Origin: a virus
Taxonomy: Duplodnaviria; Heunggongvirae; Uroviricota; Caudoviricetes
IMG/VR virus record: IMGVR_UViG_2684622582_000008
Span: 1 to 13,574 of that record
DNA length: 13,574 nucleotides
Strand: one strand, 5' to 3'
A program made the position numbers and the translations under genes. Below the pieces are notes generated by a model that saw only the letters and a list, made by a program, of their open reading frames with translations, had not been told where the DNA came from and did not search any database. Below are positions 1 through 11,899 of the stretch, one piece after another (positions within the stretch are counted from its first letter, which is position 1; every line of letters begins with the position of its first letter).

Positions 1-1038
1 CTACTTTTTCGACTCTTTATTCCACTGTAGCAAACCAGCGATATCCTTCTCGCCTTCGGCTTCTTTTAAGCGCCGTTGTTGTTCGGCAAACTGAACATAC
101 TCCGCCTGCGCTTTTTCATCGGCCATTTTCTTGCTGATTTTACCAGCGCCCTGTAGAACCTCTCGGTCGTTAAATTGCAGGAACTGATCCAGCTTATCCT
201 GCCAGTCGCGCAAAAAGACTTGCTGACGACGACGGGCCTGATCCTCGGCAAAGTCCAGCCACATATTAACCACGCGATTAAGTTCGCTGACCTCATCCTG
301 GGTGAGATAATTTTTTGCCACCGTCACGTCGCCCTTACGTACCTCTTCACCTTTATAACTGGTCAAGCCCATGTGCGGCTGGCTGGCATCTGCTCGTTTG
401 TGGATGAGTTCCGCAGCGGTATGCCCGGTACAGGCAAAATGCAGTTTATTCTGGATGGTTTGAAAAAATTGCGTGGTTTCTTTAAGCGATGGCTGATAGT
501 CGGCAGCTAAAGCAAAGATCTCCCGCACCCGCAAATATACCCGACGCTCGCTGGCGCGAATATCGCGGATGCGTTCAAGCATCTCATCAAAATAGTCGGG
601 CACAACCGATGAACCGACAGGCGGATTCTTCAGCCGCTCATCGTCCATCACAAAACCTTTGATCAGGTATTCCTGAAGCGTCTGGGTGGCCCACTGGCGG
701 AATTGCGTGCCTCGAGGCGAGCGAACGCGATAGCCGACAGCGAGAATGGCTTCGAGGTTGTAATGGTCTATCTCTCTGGAAACCTGACGTTTTCCTTCCT
801 GGCGAACTATCCGGAATTTCCGGATGGTTGAGTTTTGAACAAGTTCACCTTCGGAAAATATATTGATTAAATGTTCGTTAATAGTGCGAACATCTTTATC
901 GTACAGTTCAGCCATTGCCGCCTGGGATAACCAGATTGTGTCTGACTCAAAGCGACATTCAACACGCACTCTTCCGTCACCGCTGGCAAACATAATAAAC
1001 TCGCCTGCTGGGGGCTGGGTTAAGTCTTTGTCTGACAT
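1..1038 (-). CDS. rhuM: RhuM-family (virulence protein RhuM-like) protein, 345 aa; lies outside the satellite, next to the displaced selC 3' end
   Basis: Minus-strand ORF with TAG stop at 1-3. Preferred start is ATG at 1038 (MSDKDLTQ...), preceded by GGAGG 4 nt upstream. The longer ORF-track start at 1122 would run through the att repeat. Family call is from recalled similarity to RhuM proteins of selC-linked islands such as Salmonella SPI-3. Confidence 0.6.
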   Translation of the reverse strand: MSDKDLTQPPAGEFIMFASGDGRVRVECRFESDTIWLSQAAMAELYDKDVRTINEHLINIFSEGELVQNSTIRKFRIVRQEGKRQVSREIDHYNLEAILAVGYRVRSPRGTQFRQWATQTLQEYLIKGFVMDDERLKNPPVGSSVVPDYFDEMLERIRDIRASERRVYLRVREIFALAADYQPSLKETTQFFQTIQNKLHFACTGHTAAELIHKRADASQPHMGLTSYKGEEVRKGDVTVAKNYLTQDEVSELNRVVNMWLDFAEDQARRRQQVFLRDWQDKLDQFLQFNDREVLQGAGKISKKMADEKAQAEYVQFAEQQRRLKEAEGEKDIAGLLQWNKESKK

Positions 1039-1088
1039 GTCGCCTCCGAAGGAGTGTTGTTGACGTCGGGAGAGTTCAGGAGAGGCAT

Positions 1089-1111
1089 TTTGGCGGAAGA
1101 TCACAGGAGTC
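1089..1111. repeat. attR: displaced copy of the selC 3' end (direct repeat of 11803-11825)
   Basis: tggcggaagatcacaggagtc at 1091-1111 is identical to 11805-11825; the match extends 2 nt upstream (tt). Imperfect similarity continues into the element (caaaattgcc vs cgaacctgcc). Confidence 0.85.
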
Positions 1112-1233
1112 AAAATTGCCATATAACCACTTGATTCAAATCGTTTATATTTTTCTATTCTAATTCATTTATACACATCCTTATACATATAATATCTATC
1201 GATTAATTGTTACACGTATCTTCACGCACGTTA

Positions 1234-4854: not shown

Positions 4855-5134
4855 GTGTCCTGTCTCCCCGGTCTTTCTGCTGGGCGAGAAAATCGCGGCA
4901 CAGGCCTTTGGCTTTCAGCTCATTCAGCACAAAATCAATATCTTCATTCAGGTAGCTGAAAATATGCGGAATGTAGAGCTGATGCAGGCCGGAGAGTTCA
5001 CGGTGAATCAAATCACCCCCAACAAACCGGGATACTGCGCTGGCGCGGTTGAGCTTATGGTAAGCCTCAATGCTGAGGTGTTCACGGGCGTCATGACGCG
5101 CTGAGACGGTCTGAGGGGCTTTTTTATTACGCAC
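4847..5134 (-). CDS. epsilon: Epsilon-like protein (P2-type helper derepressor), 95 aa if GTG start at 5134
   Basis: In-frame GTG at 5134 preceded by GGAGG (revcomp of cctcc at 5141-5145). Overlaps the stop of the upstream 65-aa ORF (GTGCGTAA). Alternative in-frame ATG starts at 5179 or 5215 cannot be excluded. Function inferred from position and size only. Confidence 0.5.
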
Positions 5135-5324
5135 GGGACACCTCCACCACCGGCAGACGGGCAGCAAGGGAGAGCACATAGTCACGGACAAGGGAACGGC
5201 GGGCGCTGCGTTCATCACCGGCGACGGTGCGAAGCATGCAGATACGGGGATGACGGTCTGCGCGACGGACAGCCGCAAACACAAAGACAAATTCAGGGTG
5301 TGAAGGGGTAAGGGTTGTAGCCAT
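5127..5324 (-). CDS. Small hypothetical protein (65 aa), first well-supported ORF after the leader
   Basis: ATG at 5324 with AAGGAGA 7 nt upstream; TAA stop at 5127. It is the C-terminal part of a longer open frame (5127-5762) that I do not accept as one gene. Confidence 0.45.
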
Positions 5325-5355
5325 AAGGCAGTCTCCTTCGAGTAGCAAATAACTG

Positions 5356-5619
5356 CTATCGCCGGAGTTCCTACGCTCGATGGCGATAGCCCAGACGGGG
5401 GTAGGAATACCGGCCTCGAAGAATACCGGCCAGCCCGGAGGCTGCCCCGCCTGAGCTACCATTGACTCAGTGGCATAACATGCGATTGCGAACAGGATCA
5501 TACCTGCACGGCAAACCACACGCCACACCATAATCTGGCGCTCTGTGGCGTTGATTGCGACACAAAAAAAGACGCATGGCGCGTCATATGTCGCCTTCGA
5601 GTTACACGGGTTCCTACGC
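5356..5619 (-). ncRNA. Candidate P4-type immunity leader (cI-like RNA with seqA/seqB/seqC-like elements)
   Basis: No RBS-supported ORF between the vis stop and 5324. gttcctacgc occurs twice (5367-5376 and 5610-5619); ggggtaggaat at 5397-5407 is near-complementary (8/10) to it. Hairpin ctatcgcc/ggcgatag (5356-5363 and 5382-5389). Order on the leftward transcript (copy, complement, copy) matches the P4 seqA-cI(seqB)-seqC layout. Confidence 0.35.
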
Positions 5620-5648
5620 CCGGCTGCCGATTTTGCGGCAGCGGAAAA

Positions 5649-5678
5649 ACTATATCCGCAAATGCCGGAAAAAGGCAA
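5649..5678 (-). promoter_or_regulatory. Candidate constitutive leftward promoter (PLE-like)
   Basis: On the minus strand: TTGCCT (-35; plus 5673-5678) and TATAGT (-10; plus 5649-5654) with 18-bp spacing, just downstream of vis. Confidence 0.3.
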
Positions 5679-5713
5679 GCCAGAAAAAGGGAGTTTTTGC
5701 AGAGCGGGCATCA

Positions 5714-5980
5714 TCATGCGTCGTACCCCCGTTTGCGTCCGGCAATGCGCCCGGCCATCCATGCGGTGATTTCAGAGTGCAGCCAGGCCACATTTTTACC
5801 GCCAAGACTCACCTGCGGCGGAAATTCCCCCTTACGGATGAGTTCGTAGATGGTCGAGCGTGACAGGCCGCACAGGTGCATCACTTCCGGCAGACGTAAA
5901 AAACGCTCCTGCGTGATGTCCGGCAGCGGCATCAGTGGCGTCACAGGGGCGGGAGACGGGGAAGAAAAAACAGCTTGCAT
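5714..5980 (-). CDS. vis: AlpA/Vis-family helix-turn-helix regulator/excisionase (P4 orf88 vis-like), 88 aa
   Basis: ATG at 5980 with GAGGT upstream. Segment [29 protein letters not shown]...[10 protein letters not shown] is typical of AlpA-family proteins. Length equals P4 orf88 (vis). Confidence 0.75.
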
Positions 5981-6081
5981 CGGGCTACCTCGTTAATGTC
6001 CATACAGCACCGGATAAGTCCGTCCGGCTTCGGGTAGCGCTTTATTTTGTGAATATTTTCAGCAGACGCAACAGGGGGATT

Positions 6082-6099
6082 TGTTCAGGCTGCCTTACA
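6082..6099 (-). promoter_or_regulatory. Delta/Ogr-type activator site (TGT-N12-ACA) of a leftward late promoter (PLL-like) upstream of vis
   Basis: tgt tcaggctgcctt aca at 6082-6099, centred about 110 bp upstream of the vis start. Confidence 0.5.
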
Positions 6100-6257
6100 A
6101 TGACTGTGTGTTTTTTATCCATCTGGACTGGAAGGGTCTCAAAGGGTTCTGAAGGACCTGGAATTTTTTATAGTGAAATACAAATTGTTTTTTCTTATTT
6201 ATTTCAGTGAATTAATAAAAATAAACAGTAGTAAACAGCACAAAAAGTCCATGAGCG

Positions 6258-7265: not shown

Positions 7266-7762
7266 TTTACTGCCCGTCGTGTGGACATGTTGCTCACACC
7301 CGTCGCGCACATTTCATGGACGATGGCACCAAGATAATGATTGCACAGTGCCGGAATATTTATTGCTCTGCGACATTTGAAGCGAGTGAAAGCTTTTTCT
7401 CTGACAGTAAAGATTCAGGAATGGAATACATTTCAGGCAAACAGAGATACCGCGATTCACTGACGTCAGCCTCCGGCAGTATGAAACGCCCGAAAAGAAT
7501 GCTTGTTACCGGATATTGTTGTCGGAGATGTAAAGGCCTTGCACTGTCAAGAACATCGCGGCGTCTGTCTCAGGAAGTCACCGAGCGTTTTTATGTGTGC
7601 ACGGATCCGGGCTGTGGTCTGGTGTTTAAAACGCTTCAGACCATCAACCGTTTCATTGTCCGCCCGGTCACGCCGGACGAACTGGCAGAAAGCCTGCATG
7701 AAAAACAGGAACTGCCGCCAGTACGCTTAAAAACACAATCATATTCGCTGCGTCTGGAATGA
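7262..7762 (+). CDS. delta: Delta-like late transcriptional activator (tandem Ogr-type zinc-finger domains), 166 aa
   Basis: ATG overlaps the sid stop (ATGA). CPSCGH...C..C and a second C..CC..C...C..C cysteine cluster are consistent with duplicated Ogr-like zinc fingers. Length equals P4 Delta. Confidence 0.8.
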   Translation: MIYCPSCGHVAHTRRAHFMDDGTKIMIAQCRNIYCSATFEASESFFSDSKDSGMEYISGKQRYRDSLTSASGSMKRPKRMLVTGYCCRRCKGLALSRTSRRLSQEVTERFYVCTDPGCGLVFKTLQTINRFIVRPVTPDELAESLHEKQELPPVRLKTQSYSLRLE

Positions 7763-8678: not shown

Positions 8679-10439
8679 TCAGTTTTTATTTATGAATGAA
8701 ATACTGTTCTCTAGTGACTCCTTTACTTTTTTCACGGTGTTTTTTAACTCAATAATGGCTCCGCGACGAAAAGAAATTGAAAGTTCATTCAGGTAAGAAT
8801 TTAAGAACTCATCTAGTTTTTTTAGATGAGGTAGCTCGTTAGATAGATAATCGCGAAGGTTAGAAAAGTTGTATACAGATAATAGATGGTCTGAAAACAT
8901 TTGAATATCGTAAATGGACCAATTATGTTGTATGGCACTTATGATTAAATTTACATCTAAAGTTTCCAGTGCTTTAAACTTGAAATCTGAATGATATATA
9001 TCCATATCGATAGTGGTCCAACCATCGTTAACCATCTTGTTTTTTAATTCTTCTATTCTTTCTCTTTTTGTTATGTTAATATATTTGTCAACAAAAAAGT
9101 TATATAAATTATCTCCATCATGTTTTAGCATATTTAGTGGGATGTCATTGATGTTTGGCACGGTTTTATGAAAATATGATTTTATTTCATCGTCACTGAA
9201 GCTAAGTTTGCTTTGATTAATGGTGTCTTCATCTAGGGTGTTTATATGAGGTATATATTCATATTTTGAGAGTCTAATATAGTTATTCGTGGCAATTAAC
9301 CATGTAGATAGATCTGGAGAATTTGATTTTAAAATTGTTTTTATTATTTCTTCCTGATAGTCATGTTCAGATATGTTATATAACTCAGGTCTTAATAATC
9401 CAGCATAATCATTTCTCTTGGGAGGGGTATTGTCAGTAAAAACATATGGAAGAATGTCTTTATGCGAAATTGCATTAAAACAATATGGAGCCATTTTATT
9501 ATTATAGTTTTTGTATGCACTAATACTTAATAAATTGTTTTCTTCTTCACTTATTTCATTGTGTTCGTTTTCTGGTGTGGTTGAAATTGTTTTGAGTGAT
9601 GATGAAACAAAATTTTCACGAAACTCATTTTCCTTATAGTTGAATTTTTCCTTAAGTATTATATGTGCACACAATGAGCTTACTAAATTTTTAATATCTA
9701 TATCAGAGATATCTCTGTCTTGCGTTGTTTGTTCAAACAACGGTAGGAGTTTTACAATGACTCTATTAATGATTCGGATATTTGTTTCTTCGAAATCTAT
9801 AATTACTTGCTTAATGATGTCTCTATAATTTTCTTGTATTTTCTCAAGCTTTTTATCTAAAATGTCAGAAAGATTGTTTATAGAAAAGTATACCTCGTCG
9901 CTAATAACTTTTTCTTTATGATTCAATACCTCATTGCTTTGTTTTGAAAAATTACCAACTAAAATATAGTCTAACATCTTGTTATTTTGATAATTTTGTA
10001 AGCAAAAGGTTGCTATTTCATCTCGCAAATTTTGAGGTATACGTTCTAGATCATCAATAATAAAAACTCCTGAAAGATCTTTTAATACATAATGTTGCAT
10101 TGCCCCTGCAAATGTTGATATTATTTTTCCAGTAAACTTCCCAGTGCTTTCTTCTTTAGTAATAGCTGTGGTTACATTTGATGCTAACTCTGTAATTATT
10201 TCTATATCGGGTGGATTCTCTAAATAAGTTACACTCAACACCTTGTCTTTAAAATCTTGCAAACTATTTAATCCAAGCACAGATATATAAAATTGAGTTT
10301 TGTTGGAATAATATTGCTTAAATTCATTTTGAAGGAAGAATGTTTTACCAACCCCCCACTCACCGTTTAACAAAATTAGACCTTCACGTTTTTCATTTAG
10401 TAATCTAATTAAAACAGATATTATTGTGTTTTTATCCAT
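8679..10439 (-). CDS. KAP-family-like P-loop NTPase with large uncharacterised C-terminal region, 586 aa; candidate anti-phage defence cargo in the P4 hotspot
   Basis: ATG at 10439 with AAGGAG upstream. Walker A GEWGVGKT (GxWGxGKT type) and Walker B VFIIDDLER (hhhhDDL[DE]R type) in the first ~135 aa. Very AT-rich compared with the P4 backbone. Occupies the gop/beta/cII position between cos and int. Confidence 0.7.
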   Translation of the reverse strand: MDKNTIISVLIRLLNEKREGLILLNGEWGVGKTFFLQNEFKQYYSNKTQFYISVLGLNSLQDFKDKVLSVTYLENPPDIEIITELASNVTTAITKEESTGKFTGKIISTFAGAMQHYVLKDLSGVFIIDDLERIPQNLRDEIATFCLQNYQNNKMLDYILVGNFSKQSNEVLNHKEKVISDEVYFSINNLSDILDKKLEKIQENYRDIIKQVIIDFEETNIRIINRVIVKLLPLFEQTTQDRDISDIDIKNLVSSLCAHIILKEKFNYKENEFRENFVSSSLKTISTTPENEHNEISEEENNLLSISAYKNYNNKMAPYCFNAISHKDILPYVFTDNTPPKRNDYAGLLRPELYNISEHDYQEEIIKTILKSNSPDLSTWLIATNNYIRLSKYEYIPHINTLDEDTINQSKLSFSDDEIKSYFHKTVPNINDIPLNMLKHDGDNLYNFFVDKYINITKRERIEELKNKMVNDGWTTIDMDIYHSDFKFKALETLDVNLIISAIQHNWSIYDIQMFSDHLLSVYNFSNLRDYLSNELPHLKKLDEFLNSYLNELSISFRRGAIIELKNTVKKVKESLENSISFINKN

Positions 10440-11804: not shown

Positions 11805-11899
11805 TGGCGGAAGATCACAGGAGTCGAACCTGCCCGGGACCGCTGGCGGCCCCAACTGGATTTGAAGTCCAGCCGCCTCACCGGAGACGACGATCTTCC
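11805..11899 (-). tRNA. selC: tRNA-Sec (selenocysteine tRNA), intact; its 3' end forms attL
   Basis: The reverse complement of 11805-11899 reads GGAAGATCGTCGTCTCCGGTGAGGCGGCTGGACTTCAAATCCAGTTGGGGCCGCCAGCGGTCCCGGGCAGGTTCGACTCCTGTGATCTTCCGCCA, matching E. coli selC as recalled, including the long variable arm and CCA end. Confidence 0.9.

Follow-up and report, generated by a model that had tools for sequence, protein, structure and literature searches.

In phage P4, the CI RNA, processed from the leader, causes premature transcription termination by pairing with the sequences seqA and seqC, and the RNAs classed as C4 and IsrK-like are the CI and seqA RNAs of the P4 literature (PMC3632133, PMC4825925). 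According to Forti 1999, as cited in PMC10111431, the same P4 DNA gives CI RNA from PLE transcripts and eta protein from PLL transcripts: kil is nested in eta, whose translation requires transcripts from the upstream late promoter, is coupled to the alpA homologue and prevents termination. Phages P1 and P7 possess a C4 antisense RNA together with the genes icd and ant (Citron & Schuster 1990, as cited in PMC2864571), and the retronphage phiR73, a P4-like element that integrates at selC, is described as heteroimmune to P4 (Sabbattini 1996, as cited in PMC7567579). In Gifsy-1, the C4-like RNA STnc1160 follows IsrK (PMC4825925).

The stretch of DNA analysed here (the window; 13,574 nt of IMG/VR record IMGVR_UViG_2684622582_000008) carries at positions 5325–5713, with all features read on the minus strand, the immunity region of a P4-like satellite prophage of E. 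coli, a switch based on RNA. The system is not new, and the locus represents an ordinary, understood feature: textbook antisense-RNA-controlled transcription termination. A 1001-nt query (5100–6100, minus strand) aligned from end to end with phage P4 (X51522, 8141–9151) at 94.1% identity, and matched many E. coli chromosomes at 99% identity. In a search of a phage collection, P4 was the sole full-length match and no phiR73 record was among the matches. The vis stop (5716–5714) and the kil ATG (5324–5322) limit the interval, and gene order is as in P4—vis, leader, kil, epsilon, orf151, orf106 and alpha, with sid, delta and psu divergent (Pfam and P4 annotation)—with the ORFs 3′ of kil assigned by Pfam to the P4 Derepression family (epsilon), orf151, DUF5375 (orf106) and the alpha primase. 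We put the probability that the interval is a functional P4-type immunity region at roughly 90%, and no sequence feature speaks against this reading. The initial annotation, which had proposed a P4-like leader and named alignment, RNA folding and covariation as ways of checking it, is borne out by all three: besides the identity to P4 and the Rfam matches described below, the pairs between CI and its targets covary in 76 leaders, in agreement with seqB pairing with seqA upstream and seqC downstream, and the predicted CI fold leaves both antisense sites single-stranded. It had missed a second pairing module and an intrinsic terminator after seqA.

A 17-nt direct repeat (GGAAGATCACAGGAGTC) at 1095–1111 and 11809–11825 bounds the element. 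Its right copy forms the 3′ terminus of a tRNA-Sec gene (11899–11809, minus strand) with an integrase adjoining, and the window therefore holds a whole P4-like satellite prophage of ~10.7 kb, inserted at selC, the selenocysteine tRNA gene of E. coli. In this insertion site, and in an immunity specificity predicted to differ from that of P4, it resembles phiR73; in contrast to phiR73, however, the cargo it carries between psu and int, a variable slot, is no retron but a 586-aa P-loop protein (AAA_22/KAP NTPase; 8679–10439, minus strand), with a weak PADLOC match to the candidate defence family PDC-S49 (2.2e-12). Ec67 is of matching size and phiR73 carries a retron, and the 586-aa ORF was considered as a retron reverse transcriptase; this idea was rejected, as Pfam gave only P-loop/KAP NTPase domains. 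A 373-aa ORF (1–1122, minus strand) lies almost wholly outside the prophage, its start overlapping the att repeat; its match to the PADLOC candidate defence family PDC-S05 (3.4e-173) suggests a second island adjoining selC.

Table 1. Elements of the immunity region and flanking genes in the window (positions are those of the window).
Feature	Position	Strand	Evidence or remarks
vis, AlpA-family regulator/excisionase, 88 aa	5714..5980	-	Pfam Phage_AlpA 3.9e-21; position as P4 ORF88
eta frame, 196 aa, 591 nt; kil nested in frame at its 3′ end	5127..5717	-	Pfam Phage_ASH 2e-23
PLE promoter (putative)	5649..5678	-	promoter scan; -35 TTGCCT 5678-5673, 18-nt spacer, -10 TATAGT 5654-5649
c4-a1b1	5655-5603	-	Rfam RF03163 49.1 bits, gathering 46.7
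seqA / IsrK-like leader element	5565..5642	-	Rfam RF01394 72.3 bits, gathering 50
seqA-element hairpin 1	5642-5623	-	
seqA-element hairpin 2, seqA in loop	5622-5607	-	
seqA core GUAGGAA, upstream site-1 target	5611..5617	-	repeat search; pairs with seqB
Upstream site-2 target CUCGAAGG	5594..5601	-	repeat search; complementary to CI hairpin-2 loop
Intrinsic terminator, GACGCGCCAUGCGUC + U run	5564..5585	-	terminator scan; included in isrK model
Spacer, terminator to CI	5467..5563	-	
CI RNA gene	5384..5461	-	17-bp closing stem; hairpin 1 5444-5431, hairpin 2 5430-5409
CI site 2, UCUUCGAG in hairpin-2 loop	5415..5422	-	
CI site 1 = seqB UUCCUAC, single-stranded 3′ junction	5401..5407	-	
seqC hairpin, seqC GUAGGAA (5374-5368) in loop	5355..5390	-	inverted-repeat search
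Downstream site-2 target CUCGAAGG (5342-5335), overlapping kil Shine-Dalgarno AAGGAG (5338-5333)	5333..5342	-	
kil, 65 aa, Icd-like cell-division inhibitor	5127..5324	-	translation; NCBIfam phage_ICD_like 76.1 bits, cut-off 25
alpha primase-helicase	3928-1595		

The leader combines a promoter, an IsrK-like element ending in a terminator, and the CI RNA gene (Table 1). The PLE-like promoter seen in the initial annotation was recovered by a promoter scan as the only TTGCCT-18-TATAGT site in 5000–6200; its sequence is identical to that of P4, and its –10 element lies where P4 X02534 has the ‘-10 consensus’ annotated. Across nearly all loci compared, GGCTTGC-N17-TA(T/C)AGT is kept 6 nt upstream of the IsrK-like element. 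The site is thus placed as a putative constitutive PLE immediately upstream of seqA, as in the P4 immunity system, and its transcript probably starts at ~5642. CI matched the C4 model RF01695 over its full length (5466–5379, minus strand; 74.4 bits, gathering 45, E 2.4e-13); P4 itself scores 74.9 with RF01695 and matches C4 and isrK as the window does, and the window CI aligns to the dyad at 951–1026 of X02534. The minimum free energy fold of CI agrees with a closing stem and two hairpins. As the 5′ arm of the seqC hairpin doubles as the 3′ arm of the CI stem, the two structures are mutually exclusive. The intrinsic terminator behind seqA is presumably t1 of P4.

The repeats listed in the initial annotation fall onto these elements, with small shifts in position. 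As had been noted, GTTCCTACGC occurs at 5367–5376 and 5610–5619; these are exactly two copies in the window, with 0.01 expected by chance. The complementary ggggtaggaat between them is present, but at 5398–5408 instead of 5397–5407, and a repeat search returned complementary arms at 5392–5407 and 5611–5626 (88% complementary) as well as at 5361–5379 and 5396–5414. The hairpin placed at 5356–5389 exists with 9 perfect base pairs, its arms actually spanning 5355–5363 and 5382–5390, and corresponds to the seqC hairpin. The direct repeat reported as GGCCGGUAUU likewise exists, with ends off by one (GAATACCGGCC at 5405–5415 and 5421–5431), and represents the two arms of CI hairpin 2.

Pairing of CI with its targets has two parts: seqB pairs with seqA and seqC, and the loop of hairpin 2 pairs with second targets located after seqA and at the kil Shine-Dalgarno sequence. 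Bipartite targets are a known feature of the C4 family (RF03163); in the open literature, we found no text stating whether the P4 papers name the second pairing site. For comparison, 80 P4-like loci were sampled from species-representative genomes using the alpha protein as probe (alpha identity 99% to 57%), yielding 76 aligned leaders, window and P4 included, in which nhmmer detected both elements; in all 12 of the 12 diverse loci scanned with Rfam, isrK and then C4 lay upstream of alpha. Between CI and the upstream targets, 89.3% of cells were paired and 12 of 20 pairs showed compensatory changes, as compared to 36–50% pairing when the sequences were slid against each other and 0 of 500 shuffles reaching the observed value. 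For CI with seqC and the Shine-Dalgarno target, pairing amounted to 99.6% with 12 of 15 compensatory pairs (35–43% when slid; 0 of 500 shuffles reached 99.6%). Broken down by module, compensatory changes affect six of seven pairs between seqB and the seqA core and six of seven between seqB and seqC (100% paired), and six of eight pairs at both the upstream (99.0% paired) and the downstream site-2 target at the kil Shine-Dalgarno (99.2% paired).

The internal structures are similarly conserved. Helices within CI and the IsrK-like element taken together were 97.9% paired, with 11 of 45 pairs compensatory (30–43% when slid), those of the IsrK-like element ranging from 86 to 99.8% across the 76 loci. 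The 17-bp CI closing stem was paired in 99.9% of cells, hairpin 1 in 100% with four compensatory pairs, and the invariant hairpin 2 in 100%. The seqC hairpin reached 99.1% with compensatory changes at three of nine pairs (22–72% when slid), and the terminator, retained in 76 of 76 loci, 96.4% with one compensatory pair. A candidate anti-terminator helix, formed by the seqA hairpin and the 3′ arm of the terminator in ViennaRNA folds of the isolated window leader, was rejected: it was 77.0% paired compared to 76.6% in shuffles and showed no covariation.

These elements can be placed in a course of events modelled on P4. In a lysogen, the constitutive PLE would transcribe the leader, from which the stable CI RNA would be cut out; C4/CI RNAs arise as stable small RNAs through processing of the leader, in which RNase P cuts at the 5′ end. 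The single-stranded antisense segments of CI—the hairpin-2 loop UCUUCGAG and seqB UUCCUAC—would then each find a partner in two bipartite targets on newly made PLE transcripts. Upstream, the target consists of seqA plus CUCGAAGG and adjoins the intrinsic terminator on its 5′ side; pairing there would consequently limit further CI synthesis, an autoregulation modelled on the P4 work. The downstream target would comprise seqC plus CUCGAAGG; as its second part covers the ribosome-binding site of kil, the gene that would be translated first from PLE transcripts, kil would be left untranslated and transcription would stop before the replication genes (epsilon to alpha). Once the late promoter is on, ribosomes ending vis would re-start at the overlapping eta ATG, and eta translation straight through the leader would override CI-dependent termination. 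CI processing, the place of termination and the immunity phenotype would thereby all follow what the P4 literature describes. No conserved helix that would let CI pairing at seqA promote the intrinsic terminator came to light, the rejected anti-terminator helix being the one candidate examined.

The Shine-Dalgarno occlusion brings the locus close to P1 and P7. There, too, one target of C4 (a1b1) lies upstream and the other (a2b2) covers the ribosome-binding site of an Icd-like gene, which is kil in the window, and the RNA family (RF01695, RF03163) and the two-segment antisense logic are the same. By this likeness, CI could be purely a translational repressor of the Icd-like gene, with downstream genes silenced only by Rho-dependent polarity. 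However, according to Pfam no antirepressor gene ant follows the Icd-like gene in the window; instead, the operon continues into the P4 replication functions (epsilon, orf151, orf106 and alpha), and its leader lies inside the eta frame. Moreover, the intrinsic terminator directly after the upstream target, kept in every one of the 76 loci, points to a termination step independent of kil translation, and in the P4 literature CI causes transcription termination (PMC4825925). We therefore regard a purely translational role as very unlikely and retain CI-controlled termination as the preferred reading.

The similarity of the seqA element to IsrK raises the question of whether the terminated transcript (5642 to ~5565) is itself a trans-acting small RNA, either a decoy for CI or an IsrK-like regulator. 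Together with its terminator the element passes the IsrK model (RF01394), and it is followed by a C4-like RNA, as IsrK is by STnc1160 in Gifsy-1; IsrK acts in trans in Salmonella (PMC4825925), and IsrK-like elements of P4-like prophages were scored as required in an S. Typhi TraDIS screen (PMC3632133). The Gifsy-1 gene context (isrK-orf45-anrP-isrJ), on the other hand, is absent from the window, where CI, kil and the P4 replication genes follow, and a role in trans would supplement the termination switch without excluding it. We accord this idea next to no probability. The window element is a structural homologue, i.e. the ‘SeqA RNA’ of P4 (PMC4825925), and not IsrK proper, and the translation-activating role of IsrK is not implied for it.

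The RNA genes coincide with an open reading frame. At 5717, the eta ATG shares nucleotides with the vis TGA and has the same frame as the kil ATG at 5324, and this vis–eta coupling geometry, a vis TGA overlapping an in-frame ATG (GCATGATGATG), is found in most loci. From the start of the IsrK-like element to the kil ATG (278–327 nt), the eta frame is stop-free in 75 of 76 leaders, as opposed to 0 and 7 leaders for the other two frames. Within the spacer, which is variable in sequence, 74 distinct sequences contained 0/53/31 stops by frame, the zero belonging to eta, with shuffled spacers being stop-free 43% of the time. Spacer length, measured from the Rfam isrK end to the C4 start, is 98 nt in the window and 59, 62, 65, 68, 98 or 107 nt across loci; all six classes equal 2 mod 3 and keep the reading frame. 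As a side observation, the P4/E. coli clade carries 36–45 extra spacer nucleotides that include a perfect 8-bp inverted repeat (in the window ACGCCACA/TGTGGCGT at 5520–5527 and 5544–5551), and most other P4-like leaders are devoid of these extra nucleotides.

An intact long ORF with a Phage_ASH match, spacer indels in multiples of three, and a RefSeq annotation of E. coli 042 that gives exactly this 591-nt CDS, labelled ‘Icd-like’, without RNA genes, would also fit a plain protein-coding gene (Ash/Eta, a 196-aa ‘Icd-like’ protein) in which repeats and hairpins are incidental. Yet variation upstream of kil shows no third-position excess (0.594/0.597/0.559), whereas kil is strongly variable at third positions (0.53/0.47/1.14), and NCBIfam recognises only the kil part of the frame. 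Three structured-RNA models of Rfam exceed their gathering scores in this region, and variation is concentrated at sites covarying as RNA pairs, up to 99.6% of them paired. A protein gene without RNA function is thus extremely unlikely, and a conventional protein domain at the eta N-terminus as the main constraint was rejected for its absent codon periodicity. The immunity leader being the reading we keep, its eta frame looks selected for translatability and not for amino-acid sequence. The description in the initial annotation of an untranslated leader without a gene accordingly holds as far as the RNA leader is concerned, but misses that the same stretch is the N-terminal part of the eta frame, in which kil is nested. 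Its suggestion that a translated open frame would refute the RNA model poses a false dichotomy, since the stretch combines RNA genes with a translated frame, P4 DNA making CI RNA as well as translated eta.

Two further observations concern the frame. Pfam PF10554 (‘Phage_ASH’) matches window positions 5289–5654 (eta residues 37–158), a part that overlaps the seqA and CI RNA genes and is devoid of codon periodicity, and the ‘Icd-like’ label of RefSeq covers the entire 196-aa frame (L084:985–1575). In elements from Pectobacterium and Dickeya (L060, L062, L063, L066, L068, L069 and L070), Shine-Dalgarno sequence and ATG lie 1 nt closer together; the leader frame, though free of stops there too, is consequently not in phase with kil, which rules out eta as an N-terminal extension of Kil in this group.

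Window and P4 share, in addition to their overall identity, the flanking genes, promoter sequence, RNA structures and nested kil/eta frame. They differ in the spacer, which is 9 nt shorter in the window, and at the pairing sites, where the differences cluster: in each target set, five pair positions are changed with compensation. At site 1, seqB reads UUCUCAC in P4 and UUCCUAC in the window, with seqA and seqC both GUGAGAA in P4 and GUAGGAA in the window; at site 2, the loop is CCUGUGAA in P4 and UCUUCGAG in the window, both targets being UUCACAGG and CUCGAAGG, respectively. Predicted duplex energies were –20.8/–22.2 kcal/mol for cognate CI–target pairs and –3.9 to –11.5 kcal/mol for cross pairs with P4. 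Judging by these compensated changes and the weaker predicted cross-pairing, the window element is probably heteroimmune to P4.

Among the 76 elements, six seqB alleles and 17 hairpin-loop alleles occurred in 34 combinations, and the window loop allele UCUUCGAG was absent from the other 75 loci compared, P4 included, most of which stem from other species. A leader of Mangrovibacter yixingensis (L056:41–325) is a natural hybrid: its seqA/IsrK-like part is identical to that of a co-resident element (L054), and its upstream target matches the CI of the latter and not its own, with which 12 of 15 pairs form, while at seqC and the Shine-Dalgarno target 15 of 15 pairs form with its own CI. Another locus carries two copies of the IsrK-like/CI leader ~6.9 kb apart (L044:393–620 and 7337–7561), which suggests tandem or nested P4-like elements.

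CI-like RNAs were present in 1977 of 5426 complete E. coli genomes, the exact 76-nt window CI in 149 complete E. coli records, and the identical Kil protein on at least 1000 contigs. In an E. coli RefSeq search with window positions 5385–5460, 887 of the 2361 CI-like places lay on plasmids, mostly at 80–90% identity, and phage matches to the same query included the N15-like phages phiKO2 and PY54; the CI/IsrK-like module is thus widely distributed outside P4-like satellites as well. Four short metagenome-assembled contigs labelled Clostridiales, Ferruginibacter, ‘bacterium’ and Ruminococcus (L004, L005, L006 and L040) encode alpha proteins 97–99% identical to that of the window and probably reflect binning contamination.

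What the present comparison adds to the known system is modest: the second pairing module, the heteroimmunity prediction, a catalogue of specificities, and an eta frame kept open without amino-acid constraint. More tentatively, and as a joint proposal that we consider possible though rather doubtful, the immunity specificity of P4-like elements could be a two-module combinatorial code with four matched target sites, reshuffled by recombination, with the eta frame across the RNA genes being kept only for ribosome passage. Both points might be new, since no such survey was encountered in the open literature searched, and if the latter were true, Pfam ‘Phage_ASH’ would largely model a translated RNA gene. 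For annotation, the value lies in the fact that public records name nothing but an ‘Icd-like’ protein in the region, with its RNA genes left unannotated. The comparative data, in turn, form a catalogue of natural immunity specificities that could help predict which satellites mutually exclude each other.
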